Below are positions 5,076 through 48,873 of a stretch of 50,898 bases of DNA, in pieces. Position 1 is the stretch's first letter; the number at the start of each line of letters is the position of its first letter. Made by a program: the position numbers and the translations under genes. The notes beneath the pieces are model-generated. The model searched no databases, had not been told where the DNA came from, and was given only the letters and a program-made list of their open reading frames with translations. Origin of the DNA: Eledone cirrhosa (Eukaryota); assembly GCA_964016885.1 (NCBI GenBank), contig CAXHJY010001370.1:1-50898 (forward strand), written 5' to 3'.

Positions 5076-5642
5076 GCTGCAAAAGGGCTGTTGCTGATAT
5101 TATGTTTGCTTTGGATGAATCAGGAAGTATCACACTAAAACATTTTAAGACCATGAAAAAATTCGTAAAGAATCTTATTGCAATTTTTCCGGTTTCTAGA
5201 AAAAACATTCGTGTCGGTGTCATTACATTTAGCACCAAAATGACAAATGAGTTCAATTTGAATCGATATTTCAGTCATAGGCAATTGTTTCGTGCCATTG
5301 ATAGAATCCAATACAACAATGGAAAGACAAATACCCATTTAGCCTTGAACTATCTTAACAAATTCTCATTTGAAGCTAAAGCTGGGGATCGAAAGTTTAT
5401 TCCAAACATTGCTGTTATTATTACTGACGGAAAATCTTCTAAGCCAACCGCGACGAGCTTGGCTGCTGCAGATCTGAAAAAATCAGGAGCTCATGTTTAT
5501 ACAATTGGAATTGGAAAACGTATTTCTAAATCTGAATTGAAAACTATTGCAAGTTACCCAAGTAAAGAATATGTTTATGTTGTAAACACGTTTAGAGAAT
5601 TGTCAAAAATCAAGAATAACTTAGCATCTAAAGCTTGCCAAG
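5076..5642 (+). CDS. von Willebrand factor A domain exon with intact MIDAS
   Basis: DIMFALDESGS (DxSxS), GKTNT, VIITDG motifs; catag| ... |gtaggt; 567 bp, phase 1-1. Confidence 0.95.
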
Positions 5643-5681
5643 GTAGGTATAATTTAAAATTGATATTAAATCACACACAAA

Positions 5682-5897
5682 GGGTGGTGGATTGGCAGGA
5701 GAGGTAGACCGTCGGATAAAATACCAATGTGGTATTTGTTCTGGTTCTCGATATTCTGAGATCAAATTCCGCCCAGGTCAACTTTGCCTTTCATCCTTCC
5801 GGAGTCGATAAAATAAGTTACCAGTCAAGTACTGGTATTGATTTAATCAACTTGCATTTCCCTCAAATTTAATGGCCTGATGTCTAAATTAGAAATC
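5682..5897 (+). mobile_element. tRNA-derived SINE
   Basis: GGTGGATTGGCAG head, B-box-like GAGATCAAATTCC, CTTTGCCTTTCATCC core. Confidence 0.8.
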
Positions 5898-7054: not shown

Positions 7055-7168
7055 CTTCAGAGCCCTGCAGAAAGGACCCTTGTAAAAATGGAGGAAGATG
7101 TGTGGATTTATTTAATGATTTCAAGTGTGTTTGTAGACTAGGCTTTCTAGGAAAACGTTGTGAAATCG
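7055..7168 (+). CDS. EGF-like exon (SEPCRKDPCKNGGRCVDLFNDFKCVCRLGFLGKRCEI)
   Basis: tttag| (alternative in-frame acceptor 6 nt downstream) ... |gtaacg. Confidence 0.9.
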
Positions 7169-7847
7169 GTAACGTATTGAATATATACAATTTGTTTGCT
7201 TTTGTTTTACGGGAGAGATGCACGTGATCTTGTACATGGCTTGAAAGTCTGTTGAGAGTGGGGAATAATGTTATCCGCAAAATGGAGACTTGTTTCGATT
7301 GTTTGCAACAATAAAGGCACCCAAATGCCAGATCATGTTATTAGCGGAGTCAACTCTGTTGTTGTAAGCTGATATCATGCACACTTTAGTTCATATTTTT
7401 AAAGTCTTGTAATAAACTAATAGAAACTGACAGTCGTCATATCACGACTGTTAACTTTTATATTGACGAAAAGCAAAAAAACAACCAGGTTGAGCTTGTT
7501 AAGCGACACGACTTGGAATTAACTATGTAGGAAGTATTAGCTCATATCAGCTTTAGAGCAGAAAGCAGATAAAAGATACTGAATAGAACAAAAGCCTACG
7601 CCAGGTTCAGAACTATATTTTTATCTATCTATCTATCTATCTATCTTGATAGAGTAAGACACGCTTCACATCGGCTCCGCTATTCCATCGGAATTTACCC
7701 TTACTATAGTAAGTACCAGAGAATTTTTTCAGTGCAACACATTTGAAACACTTACCCCTGTTATTTAGGGAAACATTTTTACATTTACCCCCTTTTTAGG
7801 GGGTAAAATAAATATCTATTTTGCTGTAAAATCTCTTTCTTGGCAGC

Positions 7848-9702
7848 ATGGCGGAAAAGATGGCAGACATGTCTGCCATTAGCTCTGCCACGCCCCCCAA
7901 GTCTGAAGAACAAAAAGAAATAGATACAACAAAACTAGACAACGAAACAAACAAGGAAAATGAAAAAACAAATGTTACGGAAAATGAGCAAACGGAAAAC
8001 AAACAAACAGAAATTAAGAACACAAATAACAACAAGGCAACTTTCGCCCAGAAAACAAAACAGTCCATAACATATACACCAATAGACTTAACTGCCGCCA
8101 GAGAAAAACTGGCAGAAGCAAAAAACACATAGTCTTGGGGGAGAACGGAATGTTTTCCATTAACCCCCCCCCCCCAGAATTCAAGAAAGCGAGAACAGAG
8201 AGCACAGTTCCCTTCAGAACAATCTTAAACCAAACTAGAAAGCCAGCACAGCCCAGCCAAATGGAGATAGAGTTGGTCCTAAAAGACTATATGAAGAATA
8301 TTCTCTTCATACGAAAGGACCGACTCTATGGCAGCATTTCGGTCTTAACAAAAGACAAGGAAACGGCGCAGAAGCTTTCCCTAAGCCCACTCTCATCAAC
8401 AACATACAGCTTCTATCCCTCCTACATGGGTAGAAGAACACAGAGAGTCAAAGTACAAACAATGCTGCCCACAATGGACTTCTGGTGGGCTATTGCTGGC
8501 TTCATAGACATGGGCGAGGACACAGTGCTGTCAATGGGGAAGGCATCTGGAGATGCGTTCCTGGGAATGGGCCTCGACCTACTAGTCCAAATGAGGCCCG
8601 AAAGAATAGCACAAATCCCGGATCGCATCTGGCTGGATGACCTCACCCCAATAGATATAATTGTAGAGGGGAGAAGACCAGCATGCTATTTATGCACGGA
8701 AAGGGGACACGTTAAGGCTAACTGCCCGAAACGTATCCCCCAAAAAGGACTATTGCCCACACCCACCACAAACAGTACATCAACACCACCCACCTCCAAA
8801 AATACACTAATACCACACACAGCAAACAAAATACAGACACCACCAACCACAAGCACAACACAAACATCACCACCACCAGCACCAAACACAAGCACGACAC
8901 AAAAATCACCACCACCATCACCAACCACAACACAAACATCACCACCACCATCACCAACCACAAGCACGACACAAACATCACCACCACCACCACAAAACGC
9001 ATTCCAAACAAATAATATAAAAAACAGCAACAAATCTACCCCTCCCGCAAAAAAAAACAACCAGACACCACGTCCCTCCCACCTAGCGCTGAAGAGTTTC
9101 CCCCAACTTCTGAAGAAGAAGGAGGAGAAGCCTTCAGACAAGTTAAAAGAAAAAAAAGAAAGCACACACCCAGCACACCACAAATAACCCACACACAAAC
9201 ACCAACTCGAATCAAAAACACCCCACCCTCAACAAACAAAAATAAATCTGCGCCTCCCCTCTCCGAAACATTGACAGCATCACAAAAAAAGACGTTGCAA
9301 TACACATATATAAATAAAGAAAACAAAAAACTGTTTAAATTAATAAACAATAGCCCTTTGGTGCAGACCGAAGGGCCAAACTTTATCTCAACAGAGAACT
9401 TCACCCATTTAAAAATGGTAAAAGTCCCTCTGGACCTTTATCGTTCCTTAAAAGAACAATTTAGACAGGACGTGAGCCCCCCCCCGCCCCCCTGTTTAAA
9501 ACCGTTAAATCGCGTCCTCTTGAAAGATTTCCCCATAACCTCCCCTCTCCCTGACACAACTCCAAATACACCAACCACACCACACTCGGGTACCCCCACA
9601 CCACCACAAAACATCCCTCCACCCAACACACCTGATGCCATGGAAATTACACAACCCGGAGAGGTAGGTGCTTTTCTTTCTTCACTTTCAACACCAAAAT
9701 AG
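7848..9702 (+). CDS. Tx1 ORF1 (gag-like; CYLCTERGHVKANC zinc knuckle; Pro/Thr-rich repeats), frameshifted at A-runs ~8120 and ~9050
   Basis: ORFs 7848-8132, 8135-9187 and 9271-9702 align in order to ORF1 of copy 2. Confidence 0.85.
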
Positions 9703-12700
9703 ATCAATTGAGAGTTGGCTGTTTGAACGCGCGTGGCCTGGGCTCAGCTTGGAAGCAAGCAAAGCTTCTAAGTGACCTCAGGTCACGAAGTATAGATGTG
9801 ATGGTTGTTTGCGAGAGTCGGATCAGCAGCGTGCGACAGCTGGCTCCCGCCTTCGATGACTTTGAGATGCACGCATCTCTCTGTGAACCCGGAGGCGGGG
9901 GGGGGGGGGTTCCGTACTGCTGGATAAACGTCTGGCTCTCGACGTACAGATTGTTCACTCGGACCCGGGGGGGGGGGGGGGGGGGGGGGGGTCAATTACT
10001 GGTGCTGGACGTCGGAGGCGGTGAAGGCGGGGCTTTCAGACTGGTCGGTCTTTATGCCCCCTTCGGGGCTGAAGGAGTCGACTTCTTCCAGCGTCTGGAG
10101 ACTTTTCTAGGAACGTCGCGTTCCCTGCTTTTAGTGGGGGACTGGAATGGAATCCTAGATGCGCGTTGGGACTATGCAGGGGCATGTCCCGATAGAGGGG
10201 GGGGGGGTGTAGCAGCCTCAAAGGGTTACTCGATCGATTCGATCTGGTCGATAGATTTCGACTAGATTGTCCAACTGCGCCAACCTGGACCTGGGCAAAC
10301 CGCAGTGGTCAATCTAGATCGTACCTAGATAGGTTTTTGGTTAGGAGTAAGGATAGGGACGTATTTAGTTGTCCAGAATTGATCATGGTTGGCTATTCAG
10401 ATCACAAATTAGTGACCTGCGTGGTCAACCTTGATAGAACGCATAGACAGGGTCCCGGTTACTGGAAGATGAACTTGTCCTTGCCGGCAAAGAAAGATTA
10501 CAGGAACCGGATTAGTAGCTTAGTTAAGATGAGGTTGACGGGAGCGATCGTCAACAGCAGGTGGTGGGTATCTCTAAAGAGAGAGATTAGAGTAAGTTCG
10601 ATAGGTTACAGTAAGGAACTAGCGGCGAATAGAAATAGGAGGGAAAGGGAGTTAACAGATAAACTAGAAGAGGCGATTAGGAGCGGAGACGTGGCCAGAG
10701 TGTTAGCGGCGAGAGCGGCGTTGAGCCAGTTCTTTGACGCGAAGCACGAAGGCTGCGTTGTCCGAAGTAAAATACGTGCTTTAGGAAACGAGGGGACCAA
10801 AGCTGTTAGCTGGGCCCGCGTGACAGAAGCCAAGAGTGGGATTAAATACACCATTCGGTCTTTGCGAGACCAGGATGGACGGGTGATCCTTGAACCTGAG
10901 CGGATGTGCGAGGCCTTTCAAAGGCACTTTGCTCGACTGTTCGGAGGGGGCGGGGGGGGGGGATGTGGACTTCGGTCCATACCTTGACGGTCTACCGCGT
11001 CTTTCGAGCGGCGAAGCGGAGTGCTGCGAAAGGCCAATCACAGCCACTGAAATCGGGGAAGTGCTCAGCCAATGCAGCAGACGCAAATCTCCGGGTCTCG
11101 ATGGTCTACCATACGAACTTTATTTAGCTATGCCGGTCTTGTTCTCCGAACTCCTCGAGGCTGTCTATTGCAACTGGCAACAGAACGGGAGAATTCCCTG
11201 TTCTGTGACCAAGGGCGTGGTCACGCTAGTGAGGAAGGACGAGAGCAAGGGGGACGACTTAAGTAACTTCAGGCCCATAACTCTGCTGAATGCAGAGTTA
11301 CAGATTTTGGCCAAGGTGTTGGCGAAGAGGTTGGCGCTTGTGGTGGGTGGTTTGGTGGGAGACGCGCAGACATGCGCTATCCCGTCCAGGTCCATCCACG
11401 ACAACCTCCACCTCATGCGATACATCATAGAGAGGGTTGGCAACGAACCCGGCTTTGGTGGGGCCCTGATCAACTTGGATCAATCTAAGGCGTTCGATAG
11501 GGTCGACCATGGTTACCTGGATGCGGTGCTAGCGGCGGCGGGCTTCGGACCCGTTTTCAGGGGCTGGATTTCTGCCATGCACAGTGGCAACATCTACTCT
11601 AGGATTAAAGTAAACGGCTACCTCTCGGAGCCGTTTCAAATCACCCGGTCCATCAGACAGGGGTGCCCCCTCTCCTCCCTTCTGTACGTATTGACTCTCG
11701 AGCCACTGCTGCGGAAGTTGGAGTTGCTGCGGGGCATACCCCTGGAACCGGGATTGCACAAAGCGGTCTCGGCCTATGCCGACGACGTAACAGTAATGGT
11801 GGCGGACGCCTCGGAAATCGGGGCGATCGCCACCCTACTGGAGGAATACGAAAGGCTGACGGGGGCTAGGCTGAACCGGGACAAGTCAGTCGGTTTGCAA
11901 CTCGGAACGTGGAGGGGCAAACCGATGCCGTTAGACGGTGTCGTCGGGCAGTGGACGGAGGGCCCGGTGAAGCTGCTCGGGGTCTGGTTCGGACCGGACC
12001 TCCAGGTGGAGAAGAATTGGGGCGAGGTGACGAGCAGGGTGTTTGCGCTGACCCAGAAGTGGGCCAAGTGCAAACTATCACTGAAAGGTCGGGCGGAGGT
12101 GACGAACGCTTACATAGCGTCCGTCATCTACTACCGCCTGACCGTCGTGCCTTGCTCCAAGGAAAAGCTCACCATCATGGAACGCATGCTCTTCCAGTTC
12201 CTCTGGAAGAAGCGGCCTCCCATGGTGAGGAGATCCATCTGCTGCCAGTACCCTTCGAAAGGAGGGCTGGGTATACCGTGGCTGTTGATGCGTAGGCACG
12301 CATTGAGGCTACGGCATCTACAGGTTTTCCTCACCGGTCAGCCGGTGTGGGCCCCGTTTGTGAGGCGAGCCTTCCCACAGCTCGTCTCGCTCACCGAGCT
12401 GCAATCCTGGGTGAAGCAAAGACCGAGAAAACTGGGCAACTGGCACACCGAGTGTGCCCAGGCGCTCACGGCTATCTGGCAAGCGGACCCGACTATCAGT
12501 GGAGAATCCACCTCGACATTCTATAGAGGGCTGGTGGCTAGCAGGGGCGACGACACCCTTGGAGAGTCTCTAGGCATGGAGGAGGACGAACTGGCCAGCC
12601 TGTTCGGTAGAACTTTCGGCCCGGGACCCATGGACAACTTCCAGAGGTCCCTAGCCTGGCAGTGTTACCGGGGGGCTCTGCCCGTTCGAGAAAAGCTCTA

Positions 12701-13157
12701 CAGACACGGGCGCCCGGGCAGGGATCCCGCGAAAAAGATCTGTCCCAGATGCGTGCGCGACGAGGAAACCGTTGCGCATGCACTGGTACACTGCCCGGGC
12801 GTTGCCGATCTGTGGGGCTACGTCGAACGACTGCTGTCACGTGTGGCGCCGATTCGATTGACCGCCGAGTCTGTGGTGAACATCAAGCCGCCTCCTCCCT
12901 TCAGAAATGAAGCAGAGGCGGTCTTTCTGTGCGTAATAGCCACGATGAAAGAAGTTGTGTGGTGGACGCGCCTGAAAGGTCTGAGGTCGGGTGACTTTCT
13001 CTCCGGCCATCACCTGGTTTACTTCTTCCGATACCACTTCGGAAGAAGGATCAGGATGGAGAGAGAAGTGCTTGGCCCCAGACAGTTTTATGAAAGGTGG
13101 GTGAAAGAAGCGAGAATGGCTCGTGTAAATGGGCCTTCTTTCTACATTGTTCTGTAG
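9699..13157 (+). CDS. Tx1 ORF2: AP endonuclease + reverse transcriptase + zinc-binding C-terminus, frameshifted at G-runs
   Basis: LNARGL, GDWN, SYLDRF, SDH (EN); KSPGLDG, FRPITLLN, DQSKAFDRV, RQGCPLS, YADD (RT); CPRC..H..C. Confidence 0.95.
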
Positions 13158-13388
13158 GTGAAGAAGTGAAGAGGAAAGGGGGAGCGCCTCCTCTCTGGGC
13201 TTCCCCCGCGAAAAGAGTTGCACACTTTTCGGGGGTATGTGAAATCCCCAACACGCCCCCTCCCTTTTGAGGACTTTTTATTATTATGTTATTCTCATTG
13301 TTATGCCTTTTTCTTTACTCGTATTTATGTAAACTCCCCCCTGTGTATTTGTCCCTTTCTCTTGTGCCCTAGTGGCAAATAAATAGAA

Positions 13389-13480
<92 letters not shown>
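13389..13480. repeat. (ATCT)23 spacer between the two Tx1 elements
   Basis: Directly visible. Confidence 0.97.
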
Positions 13481-13484
<4 letters not shown>

Positions 13485-13692
13485 GTCTGACGTGTGAAAC
13501 AACGCAGGTAAGTTTTTTGTTAATTTATATGCAAAAAACCGATCTAATTGTTTGAAAAAATACAACACTTTGTAGATTAATCCCAAAGCTGAATTGTCAG
13601 CTGGGTGGTAATCCCATTTTTCGCCCCTGTAGGGGCGAACATTTTATTTTAAAAATTTGTTTTAAAATATCAGAATTTACAAAGTAAAAAAC

Positions 13693-15568
13693 TTGAGCAA
13701 CACTAGAACGCTGGAGAACGTTAATAGAGAAAAGAGAGAGAAAGAGGCAGATATTAACGTTATATCTGCTTCTACTACTATGGACGTTGCCATAGATACA
13801 ACTGTCACAAAAGAAAAAAATATATCAACATTTGAAAATTTTACAATTTCTACCGCCGAAGCGGAGAAAATTGACAATAACACACAGGAAAACACAGCAA
13901 AAAAACCCATTGACATACATACACATGAAAAAGACATCAACAACTCTACAGATACATCTACACATAAAATTTCCAACAACGATAACATCATCATCAACAA
14001 CAACACCACACAAAAAAAGAAAATGTCTTTCGCTGACACAGTCAACAGTCAACAAGATTTTATAAATCTTGATATCTCCAACGCAAGAGATATGCTCCAG
14101 CAAGGGAGAAAATTTGTAACTTTCGAAGAAAGAGGTGGGTTTAGAATTAACTCACCCCTTGAAATAAAGGAAGACACAAACCGCCGATCAGTCACTTTTA
14201 GGACTGTGTCAAATTCGTCAAGAAAACCGACATTTGTTAATCAAGCAGATATAGAAGATTCTTTCAAGGAAATTCTAGCAAATGTCGATTTTCTCCAGCG
14301 AGGAAAACAGTACGGAAGTGTTTCCGTACTGTTTAAAAGCGAGGCACTCGCCCCCAAAAACTCTGTGACACCAATAGTGTCAAAAGCATACACCTTTTTC
14401 CCTACATAGATGGGGAAAAGGACACAAAAAATAAAAATAAAAAACATACCTCCAAACATTAACATCTGGTGGATCTTGGCTGGCTTCGTAGAGCCAGAAA
14501 CAGACATAATACTTTCGATACGAAAATCTATTCGACAAAGGTGGGCGGGCACAGATTTAGAGATTCTGTTACAAATGAAACCGGAGAGAATCTCCAAAAT
14601 ACCCGAAAGAGTCGTTATTGATAATAACAACAAAATACACATTTCGGCAGAAGGACGAAAATTTCATTGCTTTCGCTGTGGTAGCACATCTCACCTAGAA
14701 GCCTCTTGTCCACAAACACACAACAACAACATCATAAAAAAAACGCTATTACCAACACCAACACCAAAACAACCACCACCACCACCACCACAAGTACAAC
14801 GACAGACGAAACGAGCAACCACACCAAAACAAACAGCCACTCAACCAACAACAACAGAAAAAACAGAGACAACACCCCTGAAGAACACATCCCCACTCCA
14901 TCCCACTCCATCAAACACTACCACAAACACACATACCGAAACACCACCACCACCACCACACAACATACCCTTACCCCACACACCTGACGATGATTATTCA
15001 TCGACGGATGAAGCTGCTTCTCCTTCTTTAAGTGAAGAAGATGGAGAACCGCGGAAATCTAAAAAAACAAAAAAAGAGACACCACAAAACCCCCAAAACT
15101 CCAATCACCAACACCAACACACAACCACAGACACAAACAACACCACTGTCAAACATCCCCCTATCAGCAAAACCAGCACCAACACCATCCCAAACACAAG
15201 CACCCACCATAAAATGAAAACTCCCGGATGAACAACAAACTAAAACAACACAACAAAAACACAAACAACAATACGCATACATCAACACAAACAACAAGAG
15301 TTTGATGGAGGTCATCTCCCAAAACCCCAAGGTGGAGACGGAGGGCAAAACTTTCGTCAATGCAGAATCGTCTCCACACCTTAAACTTATAAGGGTTTCT
15401 ATGGAAACCTATAAAGACCTAAAAATTAAATTTTCACAGGACGTGGGCAACCCCTGCCACAAACCCATCAACCGCGTCCTGTTGAAAGGTTTCCCCACCC
15501 CACCCAACACCCCATCCAGCACCCAAATGGAGATTGAACAACCCTATCTCCAGGAAACGAAAAGGTAA
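13693..15568 (+). pseudogene. Tx1 ORF1 (CFRCGSTSHLEASC knuckle), disrupted
   Basis: In-frame TAG at 14407 where copy 1 has TAC (PSYMG); further frameshift/stop around 15060-15230. Confidence 0.85.
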
Positions 15569-15609
15569 GTGCACCTTTCGTCCTTTTTCTCCAACTTTTC
15601 TTCACCAAC

Positions 15610-18600
15610 ATGGCTGGTTTACGAGTTGGAACCGTGAATGTGCGTGGCCTAGGGATGCCCTGGAAACAGGGCCAACTTTTAAACGACCTTAGGTCACACA
15701 GTATGGATGTGATAGCCATCACCGAGTCCAGAATCCACAACAGGCAGCAACTAACCCTCATCTTCGACGACTTTGAGATCTACGCATCTCTCTGTCAGCC
15801 AGGAGGTGGAGGTGGAGTGGCTGTTATGTTTCGGAAGAACCTGGACGTCGGAGTACAGCAAGTACACTTGGACCCGGAGGGTAGACTGGTAGTCCTAGAC
15901 GTGAACAGTATCGGAGGTGGAGCCTTCAGACTGGTGGCCGTTTATGCCCCGACCGGGCAATCGCAATCACGGCCAGATTTCTTTAAGCGTCTAGAGTCTT
16001 TTCTGGGAACGTCTCGCTCCTTACTTTTAGTGGGGGACTGGAATGGTATCCTAGATGCACGATGGGACTATGTGGGAGCATGTCCCAGTAGAGCGGGGTG
16101 CAACAGCCTCAAAACTTTAATCAGCCAATTCCAACTGGCCGATAAGTATCGACTGGATTTCCCGACTGCACCACAGTGGACGTGGGTAAACCGCAGTGGG
16201 ACATCTAGATCGTATTTAGATAGGTTCTTCATTAGAGAAAGGGACAAGGAGATGTTAAGCTGTCCACGAATGCACATGATTGCCTATTCAGACCACAAGT
16301 TAGTCGTCTGCTTAGTCAACCGTGATAGAATACATAGACAGGGTCCCAGATACTGGAAGCTGAACGTGTCGTTGCCGGCACGTAAAGCTTACAGTGAACG
16401 GATAAGTAGACTAGTCAAGCAACAGTTAACGGGAGCCATCGTCAACAATAGATGGTGGTACTCTCTCAAGAAAGTAATTAGAATAGAATCGATAGGGTAT
16501 AGCAGAGAGTTAGCCTTAGAGAAAAACAGAATAGAAAGAGAACTAGTAGCCAAGGTAGAGGAGGCACTTAGAAGTGGCAACGCGGCTAGAGTGTTAGCGT
16601 CGAGAATGGCACTGGACCAGTTCTTCGATGCGAAACACGAAGGCTGCGTGGTCAGAAGCAAAACACGTGCTCTAGGAAACGAAGGAGCGAAAGCTGTCAG
16701 CTGGGCCCGAGTGGCGGAGGCAAAAAGTGGCAACAAGTCCACGATTCGGTCTTTGAAAGACCAAAACGGACGCGTGCTACTTGACCCCAAGCAAATGTGC
16801 GCGGCTTTTCAGCGGCACTTTGCGCGACTGTTTGAGCAGAACGACGGTGAGCCGAACGGGGCAATGGACTTTAGTTCATACCTCGATGGCCTGCCGCGTC
16901 TCTCAAACACGGACGCCGAGTTCTGCGAAAGACCGATCACGGACACTGAGATACGGGACGCTCTGGGCCGCTGCGGGAAACGCAAGTCACCCGGTCTAGA
17001 TGGTCTACCCTACGAATTTTACATAGGCATGCCGGACTTGTTCTCTGGCGTCCTCGAAGCCGTCTACTGCAATTGGCAGCAGAACGGGAGAATTCCCAGT
17101 TCTGCAGGCAAGGGCGTAGTAACGCTGATCAGGAAAGACGAGAACAAGGGGGACGAAATTAACAACTTCAGGCCCATAACTCTGCTCAACACAGAGTTAA
17201 AGATTTTGGCCAAGGTGCTAGCGACGAGGTTGGCGCTTGTCGTCGAGAACCTGGTAGGGAAAGCGCAAACGTGTGCAATCCCGACCAGGTCCATACACGA
17301 CAACCTCCACCTCATGCGATACATCATAGAGGGTGGGTAGTAAACCCGGCTTCGGTGGGGCTCTGATCAACTTGGATCAGTCTAAGGCATTCGATAGGGT
17401 CGACCATCGATACTTGGAAGCGGTTCTCAAGGCGGCCGGTTTCGGTCCCGTGTTCAGAGGATGGATCGAGGCGATGCACACCAGCATCTGCTCGAGGGTC
17501 AAGGTGAACGGCTACCTATCGGAGCCGTTCGCAATCACGCGTTCCATTCGACAGGGATGCCCTCTCTCCTCCATTCTGTATGTATTGACTCTAGAACCAC
17601 TACTGCGGAAATTGGAGCTGTTGCAGGGCATCCCCCTAGAACCGGGACTGCGCAAAGCTGCGTCGGCTTATGCCGACGACGTAACGGTAATGGTGTCGAG
17701 CACCTCGGAAATCGGGGTGATCGGCAACATACTGAAAGAATACGAAACGCTGACGGGAGCAAAACTAAACCCAGACAAGTCTGTCGGTTTGCAACTCGGT
17801 ACGTGGAGAGTCAAACCGATGACATCCGACAGCGTCGTTGGACGCTGGACGGACGGACCGGTGAAATTGCTCGGGGTCTGGTTCGGTCCAGACCTCCAGG
17901 TGGAGAAAAACTGGAACGAGGTCACGGCCAAGGTGTTTGCACTCACTCAGAAGTGGGCAGAGTGCAAACTGTCCTTGAAAGGTCGAGCGGAGGTGGCGAA
18001 CACTTTCATAGCGTCCGTCATCTACTACCGCTTGACTGTCGTGCCTTGTCCCCGTGAACACCTCGTCAAGATGGAACGCATGCTCTTCCAGTTTCTGTGG
18101 AAGAAGCAGGCTCCGCTGGTGAGGAGATCCGTCTGCTGTCAGCACCCTTCCAACGGAGGGCTGGGAATGCCGTGGCTGATGATACGCAAACATGCGCTGA
18201 GGCTGCGGCATCTCCAGGTATTCCTCACCGACCCCCAACCGGTGTGGGCACCGTTTGTGAGACAGGCTTTCCCACAGCTCGTCTCGCTAACGGAGCTGCA
18301 GTCCTGGGTGAAGAAAAGACCGAAAACGATGGGCGCCTGGCACATTGAATGCGCTCAGGCGCTCACAGTCCTCTGGCAAGCGGGCGCAGCATTCAGTGGA
18401 GACTCCACTTCGACATTCTATAGAGGGATTGTACGTGACAAGGGCGACGACGTGCTCGGAGAGACTCTGGGCGTCGAAGACGATGAGCTCACCAGTCTGT
18501 TTGGTAGGACTTTCCGCCCGGGACCTATGGACAATTTCCAGAGGTCCCTGGCCTGGCAGTGCTACCGAGGAGCTCTACAGGTTCGTGACAAGATCTACAG

Positions 18601-19054
18601 GCACGGACGCCCTGGCAGGGATCCTTCCAAGAGGACGTGTCCAAGATGTGCGCAGGACATTGAAACAGTTCTGCACGCAATTGTACACTGCCCGGGCGTA
18701 ACCGACCTGTGGAACTATGCAGAACAACTGCTGTCGCGTATGGGACAAATCCAGTTGACTGCCGAGTCCATAGTAAGGATCAAACCGCCAGACTCTTTCA
18801 AAAACGAAAGAGAGGCGGTTTTCCTCTGTACGGTGGCTATGGTGAAAGAAGTTATATGGTGGACGAGGTTGAGAGGACTGAGGACAGATGCCTTTCTCTC
18901 CGGACAACAATTGATTCCCTTCTTTAAGTATCACTTTAGAAGGAGAATCAGGGTGGAGAGAGAGGCACTGCACCCCAGTAAATTTACTGAAAGGTGGGTG
19001 AATGAAGCGAAAATGGCCCGAGTGATTGGGCCTTCTCTGTTTATAAGCCTGTAG
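15610..19054 (+). CDS. Tx1 ORF2 APE-RT, one frameshift (2-nt deletion) at ~17330
   Basis: ORFs 15610-17340 and 17333-19054 are collinear with copy 1 ORF2; GDWN, SDH, YADD, CPRC motifs. Confidence 0.95.
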
Positions 19055-19500
19055 GTTGAGGAAGAGAGCAAAAGGAAGAAAGGAGCACTTGCACGCTCCT
19101 GGAGTTGAGGGTTGTTCTATCGACGGGGTATTAACCAACCCATTTGTGGCGCCTTTCCCCTATTGGGGATTTCGATTGTTGAAATTGTTTGTTTTTATAT
19201 TTTTTACACGACTGTATGTAAAATCCCCGGCATGTCTTTGTATTGTCCCCTTTTCTTGTTGCGCCCTTGTGGCTAATAAAGAAATCTATCTATCTATCTA
19301 TCTACACACACGAACACATATTTTAATACAATACATAATACTATAATTCTGATTCTACATAATATAAATAGTTTCGTTAATTATTTCCACTTCGGCTATT
19401 CTATGTATGTGTTTTAAGCTACTGTCTGAGAAGTACTATAAGACTACTAGTATTTTAAATAGTTATAATTACTCTGCTAAAACATTTGATGAATAAATTA

Positions 19501-19725
19501 GAGCGATGGATTAGCAGAATCGGTAGAGCATCGGACAATATGCTTTGTGGTATAGAGTAGCGGCACTTTACACTCTGAGTTCAAATACCACAAAGGTTAG
19601 CTTTGCTTTTCATCCTTACGGGGTCGATAAAATAAAACAACAGTAATGCACTGGGGTTGATTTAATTGACTTTATCCCCTGCAAAAAAAAAGAAATTGCT
19701 GGCCTTGTGCCCAAAATAGAAACAA
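19501..19725 (+). mobile_element. tRNA-derived SINE
   Basis: A-box TAGCAGAATCGG, B-box GAGTTCAAATAC, shared core and tail. Confidence 0.8.
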
Positions 19726-21147: not shown

Positions 21148-21258
21148 TTAAACCATGCAGTAGCAACCCATGTAAAAACAATGGAATCTGTGTAAACGAA
21201 GATTATGAATTTAGTTGCAAGTGCCAAGGCGGCTTTAGAGGAGATCTCTGTGCTATAG
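21148..21258 (+). CDS. EGF-like exon (KPCSSNPCKNNGICVNEDYEFSCKCQGGFRGDLCAI)
   Basis: ttatag| ... |gtatgt, 111 bp. Confidence 0.92.
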
Positions 21259-22229: not shown

Positions 22230-22339
<110 letters not shown>

Positions 22340-35094: not shown

Positions 35095-35865
35095 GCAATT
35101 TATGTTTACAAGCCGAAATTGCCTCAGATTTTTTGTTTAAGATGTGGTCTTTGGCGTAGAGTATTCCCAGGGCCTCAGCGCACAGAGGTCACATGGTCTT
35201 TCATTTCCGTTATACAATCTAGCCCTAGCTAGGATCTCCCAGTGTAACTTATATTGGGTGTGGTTGTCTTTTAGACTCCAGATATAAGCTGAAAGTGACG
35301 TCATGTTCCTTCTTAAAGGGTAACGAAAAGAACGGGTATGCATGTAAAGACGCTGCTTGAATCTATTGGCGGTTGACCCTATGTAGGCCCTACGGGACGT
35401 GGGTGTTTCAACATTTGTAGACAATGTTACTAGAGAGACATTTCCCGGATAGGGGCAATCAACCCGATTTCTACAATTACAGTTAGTATTAACTACAGGG
35501 TTGCACGTGTTCCTACGGCTAGGTAGTTTAGCTAAATTTGAAGCTGTGATGTTATGTGCAAGGTTAGGAGTCATAGAGTAAGAAATTTTAATAGTATTTC
35601 TATTAAAAATTTAACTATATTTATGTGTAGGGGGAAAATGCTTCATAATAAGGGAGAGAAAGATCTTAGCTAATGGTGTGACCACCTCCATATTATATGG
35701 TGGGTTATACCATATAATGCGTCGGCATCTATTTCTTCTAGGTCTATTCTCGTACTCTGTATATGCTACCTTATCGACAAATCCACTCCGAGCAAGAGCT
35801 TCATTGTAATATGTGGAATGGTCGTTGAAAATATGCTCATTAGTAGATAGACGGGAAAGCCTCAA
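35095..35865 (-). pseudogene. Penelope ORF remnant: RT C-terminus, Cys-rich linker, GIY-YIG endonuclease
   Basis: RRIIWYNPPY, CNCRNRVDCP, YIGSTANRFKQRLYMH, CDLC; one in-frame TAA and small frameshifts. Confidence 0.88.
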
Positions 35866-47644: not shown

Positions 47645-47749
<105 letters not shown>

Positions 47750-48873
47750 ATGTCTGTCTGTCTGTCTGTCTGTCCATCGATCTGTCTGTAGATTGGTGGT
47801 CATTTCAGTGTTATATGTGTTGGTTAAGTATATAGTACTGCGTAGGAGACAAAATATGAATCTGTAACGTGTCGAGCGGCTGACGAGTGTTCCTAAAACC
47901 TCTGCAACCATTTTGATGTTTTCTCTAGAGATAAATTGATGGTATTACGCCAGTTATCTATAAAATTTAGCGGATGATTAGAGGCTTATGCCAGGCATAT
48001 AAATATTAAAATATTTTCAGAAGTTCCGGTACTTAATGTCATTTGTAATTCATCAGTAGAGATTATGTATTTTTTCTTTTTTATTTGCAATGTTTCCTTA
48101 ATTTTATTGTATCCCAGGGAGTCATACACGAATGTGTTAGCACGGAGTATGGCGAGGAGGATGCCCTCATAGAACTATTCTAAGAATAGGGATCATGTCT
48201 ACGATTGGCTATTTCTACCACAATAAAGTTAAGTAGGGAAATGGCTCAGGGGATCCGAATATATGTAAAGCAATTGATGCCTGTCAGATAAAATGCCCTG
48301 CGCTGCGCAGATTTGAACGCACGATATACGAAATGTTAATCCAATATGATAACAAATTAGCCATTTGAGTATTTTGTATCCTTTCTATGTACTCAATAAA
48401 TTACAGAATTCGCCTACTGATAATCTATTTAATGTCAAAGGATGTTATGTTAAATCGGGTTGTGCTAATAAGCCTAGTTGTTTCTTTTGATAAGAAACCG
48501 CATGAAACTCTCCCAGATTCAGTGATACAAAGTCGTGTATTACGCTTTTCATATATATTATATATCAAAAAACCTTTCATCAAAATCTAACGATCCTTGC
48601 TAAGTTTCAAATATCGGATAAATAATGAAAAAGTTAGTTATATTAATAAACAAACGAACATTCTTGACTATTGTAAACATTATTTGAAAACCATAGTCAG
48701 TGTCTTTTATTAAAATATGATAACGCAAAGGTTAATGGGTATTATGTTATTAATCAGCATGAGGTGATGGAATCACAGAAACTGAAGTATTTCGTCTATT
48801 ACGAAACTATTTTGAAGAAAATATTCATGTTTTAAAGAAATATAAAGGTTTTTATGTTTTATATATTTTGCAG

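Follow-up and report, generated by a model that had tools for sequence, protein, structure and literature searches.

Two LINEs stacked in an (ATCT)n tract of Eledone cirrhosa: an L1/Tx1-type lineage inserting at TATCT, with a close sister lineage on (ATT)n

The window, the whole 50,898-nt stretch of Eledone cirrhosa DNA that was analysed, contains two LINEs, E1 and E2, both on the plus strand and arranged in the order (ATCT)6, E1, (ATCT)23, E2, (ATCT)5. The array is intronic, because it is flanked by EGF exons at 7066 and, as the next exon after the array, at 21156; the host gene, of VWA/EGF type, has the same orientation as the array. The features are as follows.

7066..7168, plus strand: host EGF-repeat exon, upstream of the array
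7623..7646, plus strand: (ATCT)6, 5' target tract of E1
7647..13391, plus strand: LINE E1, full extent, frameshifted; body end AATAAATAGAAATC
7848..9667, plus strand: E1 ORF1, broken in the window copy, with a possible weak CCHC knuckle
9699..13157, plus strand: E1 ORF2 (APE endonuclease, RT, zf-RVT)
13378..13383, plus strand: AATAAA at the 3' end of E1, followed by TAGAAA, without poly(A)
13389..13480, plus strand: (ATCT)23, separating E1 from E2
13481..19286, plus strand: LINE E2, full extent, broken; body end AATAAAGAAATC
13780..15568, plus strand: E2 ORF1, frameshifted and interrupted by an in-frame stop at 14407-14409
15610..19054, plus strand: E2 ORF2 (APE endonuclease, RT, zf-RVT), with one frameshift near 17330
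19275..19280, plus strand: AATAAA at the 3' end of E2, followed by GAAA, without poly(A)
19284..19303, plus strand: (ATCT)5, 3' target tract after E2

An earlier note on this DNA had described two full-length, same-strand elements in ATCT repeats, ending in AATAAA(TA)GAA without poly(A), and had taken them for independent insertions. The tract layout was confirmed at 7623-7646, 13389-13480 and 19284-19303, and the ends read AATAAA-TAGAAA in E1 and AATAAA-GAAA in E2. Both elements are full-length in extent but not in coding capacity, with frameshifts in both and stops in E2 ORF1; those of E1 ORF2 lie at G runs near 9900-10200 and at about 10950. Open frames were found in other copies, namely a 600-aa E1 ORF1 in L145, a 595-aa E2 ORF1 in L189, and an E2 ORF2 open over 1148 aa in L174, L187 and L191, and a separate ORF1 of about 600 aa is present in both families. 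E1 begins at the junction TCTATC|TTGATAG, and the head of E2 is repeat-like, (CTCTCT)TTCTGTCTGACG. At the DNA level, E1 and E2 are 76% identical over ORF2 and patchy or barely alignable elsewhere; their proteins share 74% identity in ORF2, falling to 38-39% over the ORF1 core. The two are members of separate multi-copy families, each of 95-98% identity. These values bear out the independence of the two insertions, and an origin of the window array by tandem duplication is contradicted by the ORF2 DNA identity of just 76%.

The ORF2 products of the naturally open sequences P0001 and P0002 matched Pfam PF03372, PF00078 and PF13966 (the last slightly below the cut-off), and the best match of ORF2 among solved structures in the PDB was L1 ORF2p (E 3e-55), with R2 at E 7e-21. 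A CCHC zinc knuckle in ORF1 is a feature of the Tx1 clade. Two open ORF1s had no match in Pfam and the zf-CCHC match on the window ORF1 fragment (E 0.0055) is below the cut-off; the pattern C-x2-C-x4-H-x4-C is visible in ORF1 of E1, E2 and the sister (ATT) family described below. E1 and E2 are APE-type LINEs of the L1 group, having an endonuclease, a reverse transcriptase, a C-terminal zinc-binding domain, a separate ORF1, 5' truncation and target duplications. From this architecture, they are putative members of Tx1; searches for protein relatives returned no named Tx1 reference, and the relatives bore no names beyond generic JGI labels and a UniRef cluster from a frog. A metagenome scan gave 55 loci, mostly relatives of 23-33% identity, with an ATCT tract of at least 14 bp in none of them.

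Across the 3.0-Gb genome, the 17-mer of the 3' end occurs 15,878 times, and its reversed control twice. The body end consists of AATAAA..GAAA plus two family-specific bases, and in 12,775 of the 15,878 occurrences (80.5%) two free bases are followed by TATCT; three further A's follow the 3' end in 7. The background frequency of TATCT is 0.0019 per position and strand, as measured in 400 kb from 40 arbitrary places. This background holds 736 (AT)n, 213 (AC)n, 172 (ACAT)n and only 16 (AGAT)n tracts of at least 12 bp, the last number excluding chance for the ATCT association; (AT)n tracts outnumber (AGAT)n tracts 46-fold, yet they are minor targets. When the first 30 copies along C1 were taken by position, TATCT followed 23 and a perfect tract of at least 12 nt followed 10, the other 7 being followed by a different sequence, for example TATAT or TCTCT. 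Since 144 of 1,484 background TATCT sites lie within tracts of at least three units, against 10 of these 30 copies in perfect tracts, repeats look favoured over lone TATCT motifs; the tracts may also have lengthened after insertion. Among 260 3' ends examined, which fall into at least six 3'-end families, TATCT came next in 224 and TCTCT in 4. The two bases before TATCT differ by family (TC, TT, TA, CA, GT/AT, GA), so insertion does not require pairing upstream of the nick. The specificity is thus relaxed, being for a short TATCT motif that is favoured in repeats, with TATAT and TCTCT as off-targets. The (ATCT)n/(GATA)n target that the earlier note had put forward survives as a preference for repeats but not as a strict microsatellite, and its conservation in two families was correct as to sharing and too low as to number.

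We then considered the 5' side. Terminus searches gave 659 (5' end) and 1707 (3' end) candidates for the E1 family and 802 and 808 for the E2 family, with 40 candidates scored and 30 cut out per search. In 79 stretches around 5' matches, drawn from the best-scoring copies, the head was found in 77 and both ends in 72; being the best-scoring, these 72 are the youngest copies. None of them has poly(A). An ATCT repeat lies within 22 nt upstream in 35/36 E1 and 34/36 E2 copies having both ends, and the tail of a sister element lies within 70 nt upstream in 17/36 and 12/36, respectively, so that stacking in ATCT tracts, as in the window, is common. A second set comprised 89 distinct loci chosen by 3' end: 45 run off the locus, 12 have internal deletions, and the remaining 32 are genuinely truncated at the 5' end. 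The repeat is present within 22 nt upstream in 28/32 of these head-less copies and absent in four, as compared with 1,950 of 114,000 random positions (1.7%). ATCT found only as a 3' tail beside random 5' flanks, the pattern that the earlier note had set against its reading, was therefore not seen in either set.

Target duplications point the same way. Non-repeat bases are duplicated on both sides in L034, L053, L060, L094, L264, L273, L274 and L300, and further in L066 and L333, two single examples from a 92-row automatic junction table that includes internal deletions; such duplications identify TATCT as target DNA. With microhomology included, their lengths are 12 nt (L060), 16 nt (L053, L094 and L273), 17 nt (L300), 19 nt (L264) and 29 nt (L034), as well as 19 nt for L274, which lies at an ATCT-free site. 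All except that of L274 begin at TATCT right after the body end, and most are of 12-19 bp. The targets of L273 and L060 comprise merely one to one and a half repeat units. In 12 of 19 informative truncated copies only the repeat part is duplicated, short of the full 12-19 bp. Homologues of the L095 flank without the insertion (L352 and L371) already have an ATCT-type repeat, and L323, a sister-family copy in the opposite orientation, lies in a (TA)n stretch of the repeated flank in which L095 sits at ATCT. At the off-target copies L274, L279 and L333, the body end directly meets the flank with no ATCT added; L256 has one extra repeat unit. Given the upstream repeat in most truncated copies and the duplications that start at TATCT, the ATCT repeat is almost certainly a real insertion target and not merely a tail. 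A fixed duplication of about 23 bp, suggested by L136, was rejected, most copies lacking it, and a SINE-like short repeat suspected in the arrays proved to be truncated sister-family copies.

Full-length copies have a uniform 5' junction (TCTATC in 32/36 for E1, CTCTCT in 24/36 for E2). Non-repeat duplications were counted in 5/26 full-length versus 10/20 truncated copies before filtering (p=0.055), and in 1/22 versus 7/19 (p=0.016) after a post hoc filter that required a match of 10 nt and discarded five rows with the break at position 0-1, four of them full-length and one truncated (two were mis-anchored). This contrast fits, weakly, with annealing of the cDNA through its repeat-like head.

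A genome search with a distant relative, P0017, recovered a sister family whose ORF2 is 71% identical to that of E2 and 68% to that of E1 (loci L393-L442, for example G000:C1:80977500-80992500 and G000:C4:166056000-166071000). Among the top scorers, the frame is open over 1146-1150 codons in 29/30 loci, and the mean DNA identity between copies is 99.5% over 435 pairs. The 3' end is GTGGCCAATAAATGAAATC, as in E2. ATT repeats come next after all 30 sister 3' ends, exactly ATTAT in 29, and (ATT)3 precedes 19/19 heads. These copies also form head-to-tail arrays, with spacers mostly of 15-18 nt (8/11); the arrays include at least one further ATT family (L448). The sister lineage is young and coding-intact and uses (ATT)n rather than ATCT. 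A wider 3' pattern gave 8,203 matches, and the flanks were counted by hand among the 100 listed: the AATAAATGAAA type (46 of the 100) was followed by ATTAT in 33 and by TATCT in none, the TGGCAAATAAAAGAAA type (52) by TATCT in 42 and by ATTAT in none, and the remaining two were ATT-like. Cross-overs between ATCT and ATT were seen at 2 of 282 ends in the examined loci.

Phylogenetic analysis of the reverse transcriptase placed the ATCT families in one clade (support 99/96, five rows), which was less firm in a tree of 660 residues (91/90, four rows), and the endonuclease tree left the base open. In an AU test, the two ATT rows were rejected as a clade of their own (p 0.0044), a result confounded by the P0003 row. 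Fourteen fixed endonuclease positions separate eight ATCT-group from two ATT-group sequences, two of them at DNA-facing positions: Y154 of E2 (C in the ATT group) aligns to L1 R155, and S196 (I in the ATT group) to L1 P197. The catalytic residues align to L1 D145, D205 and H230 in an alignment read by eye. According to the available text of a study of L1, R155 is among the residues expected to influence recognition downstream of the cut, and P197 is the tip of a minor-groove hairpin (PMC1950540). In the same text, single point mutants of L1 retained specificity whereas loop grafts altered it, a Tx1L loop grafted into human L1 changed nicking, and genomic integration was more stringent than nicking, with RNA-DNA pairing raised as a contributor (PMC1950540).

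The use of (ATT)n by a sister lineage whose 3' end is shared implies a target switch between close relatives, likely made through surface residues of the endonuclease. We suggest tentatively, and with more doubt than confidence, that these two lineages of about 70% ORF2 identity split (ATCT)n and (ATT)n between them through a handful of endonuclease substitutions, including those at the positions matching L1 R155 and P197. Many of the 14 differences could be explained by shared descent, the ATT rows being just two. If the suggestion is true, a swap of few residues would retarget a LINE between simple repeats, and near-identical coding-intact ATT copies exist.

As for the mechanism, the best explanation, and in our judgement probably the correct one, is that the endonuclease picks TATCT and reverse transcription starts at the fixed body end, maybe aided by short pairing. 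E1 and E2, which inserted independently, belong to a multi-family L1/Tx1-type lineage found in fixed register at TATCT, for the most part inside (ATCT)n/(GATA)n. The ORF2 endonuclease likely nicks the AGAT strand in (ATCT)n/(GATA)n; as duplications start at TATCT after the body end, we infer the first nick at top-strand ^TATCT, with microhomology leaving an uncertainty of 1-2 nt, and the second cut would fall about 12-19 nt downstream. Reverse transcription probably begins at the fixed 3' end of the element, possibly with short RNA-DNA pairing, and full-length cDNA would join through its repeat-like head, trimming the non-repeat part of the duplication. Each insertion would leave TATCT tracts on both sides and, the duplication regenerating the target, later copies could stack there and seed arrays as in the window. 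The specificity may be set by the endonuclease alone.

The chief alternative is a loosely AT-rich-specific endonuclease, with the choice of site made by base pairing of a read-through RNA that ends in (UAUC)n, or in (AUU)n for the sister lineage, and that can prime only where the 3' end of a nick is complementary. Such tail pairing has been proposed for RTE, CR1 and L2 elements in the available text of PMC6007223. Here, AATAAA stands 6-8 nt ahead of the repeat, so normal cleavage would presumably leave repeat units on the RNA; in addition, poly(A) is not copied, the extra repeat unit of L256 fits an RNA-borne tail, and the off-targets TATAT and TCTCT are similar to the target. However, no repeat units were added at the non-ATCT sites (L274, L279 and L333), and at least six families with different final two bases keep the same register. 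The 14 fixed endonuclease differences between the ATCT and ATT groups, two of them DNA-facing, also speak against this alternative, although shared descent alone could yield them. We consider the pairing of a repeat-ended RNA unlikely to be what chooses the site.

It is highly improbable that the repeats are the element's own head or tail, or grew after insertion at random sites. Repeat-like heads and the uniform full-length 5' junctions would fit such an origin, but truncated copies without a head still have the upstream ATCT and duplications starting at TATCT, and uninserted homologous flanks already contain the repeat. Passive accumulation, as proposed for Drosophila Waldo-A/B near CA repeats in the available text of PMC3812793, whether by better survival of random insertions in microsatellites or, for the window array, by tandem duplication, is scarcely credible, given that 12,775 copies keep to one strand and one register, the minor use of the far commoner (AT)n, and the divergence of E1 from E2.

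This is a known kind of element that works like Kibi and Koshi, with a target that is new relative to the literature searched; the association with TATCT is real and well supported. Human LINE-1 inserts at TT|AAAA with poly(A) pairing. It is similar in its layout of endonuclease, reverse transcriptase and C-terminal zinc domain, in target duplications of variable length and in an AATAAA near the 3' end, whereas here poly(A) is not copied, the motif is strong and in fixed register, and copies stack in arrays. Dong is an R4-clade element with a restriction-like endonuclease. Waldo, Mino, Kibi, Koshi and Dong are listed as microsatellite-targeting, with (ACAY)n for Waldo, (AC)n for Mino and (TAA)n for Dong, in the available text of PMC3812793. 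Waldo, Mino and Dong are likewise non-LTR elements, and the repeat of Dong is of the same triplet class as the (ATT)n of the sister family; Waldo and Mino belong to a different clade, R1 by the cited title, whereas the ORF2 of E1 and E2 best matches L1 ORF2p.

The closest parallels are Kibi on (TC)n and Koshi on (TTC)n of teleosts and crocodilian Tx1 families on (TTCC)n/(TTTC)n, as given in the accessible part of PMC4494074. Like these, E1 and E2 are APE-type LINEs of L1/Tx1 architecture with a microsatellite site and several families per target; they differ in the target, here TATCT/(ATCT)n, in the host, here a cephalopod, in the about 16,000 3' ends retrieved with a single pattern, and in having a close sister lineage on (ATT)n. 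Microsatellite targeting has been defined by a single type of sequence that makes up over 20% of the flanks (PMC4494074, accessible part); here the figures are 80% of 3' ends genome-wide and 28/32 truncated 5' flanks. TATCT/(ATCT)n is absent from the targets named in the accessible parts of PMC4494074 and PMC3812793. Within the open literature, taken without Repbase, Dfam, subscription papers and the supplement and Fig. 3 target labels of PMC4494074, no (ATCT)n/(GATA)n-targeting LINE was found. RTE-clade LINEs with microsatellite-like tails are alike in showing a correlation between the repeats at their 3' end and the point where the target duplication starts; their overlap in animals is one or two bases at dispersed sites (PMC6007223, available text), whereas here the fixed part of the target covers at least five bases, with repeat in the upstream flank as well. 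For cephalopods, 13 recently active L1-Tx1 families were reported in Octopus vulgaris, targets going unmentioned in the available text (PMC13282606), and an L1-Tx1 expansion was described for coleoids (PMC8967140, in part).

How APE-type elements choose their repeat is not well understood, according to the available text of PMC3812793. While the target itself is of modest novelty, the matched ATCT/ATT sister pair is the source of usefulness: it supplies, in nature, two close families that use different repeats, together with a few candidate residues, at a junction defined to the base from thousands of copies. The candidates in E2 are Y154, S196, C62/Q63 and P159. With this pair and these residues, the roles of the endonuclease and of RNA pairing become directly testable. 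These LINEs interrupt or flank a large number of the animal's GATA-type microsatellite loci, a point of relevance to the design of markers and the annotation of repeats.

Several further features of the elements and the window were observed. The ORF2 start of the E1 family (window 9699-9701) is ATA in the E1 copies examined and ATG in sister families, and may reflect non-AUG initiation or dependence on sisters in trans. The ORF1 stop codon, which may be TAA, TAG or TGA, is embedded in a splice-donor-like G|GTRRGT in both ATCT and ATT families (window 9664-9669 and 15565-15570; L443, L444, L445, L448, L427, L326 and L388). This motif was present in 138/150 ORF1-ORF2 junction rows, followed by a pyrimidine tract of 25-45 nt and then ORF2, and is possibly a U1-binding or reinitiation signal. 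L446, which has no ORF1-ORF2 spacer, was rejected as evidence of splicing, since its ends do not match a GT-AG intron. The E1 5' junction at 7640-7653, TCTATC-TT-GATAGA, is an inverted repeat built from target and head.

The host gene, at 2078-36657 of the window, has numerous EGF exons, and its VWA exon is at 5102-5707. The LINE array lies in one of its introns in sense orientation, bringing two AATAAA signals. Elsewhere in the window, a (TCTA)35 tract at 47645-47787 is unoccupied and a (TCTG)n tract at 22230-22324 is likewise without an element end. A 145-aa ORF on the minus strand at 35137-35574, with no match in Pfam, resembles what we take to be a fragment of a Penelope-type GIY-YIG endonuclease. 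Directly downstream of the array, at about 19490-19700, lies what is presumably a SINE-like repeat, and heads like that of this repeat come after some ATCT and ATT tails (L103, L174, L399, L403 and L421).
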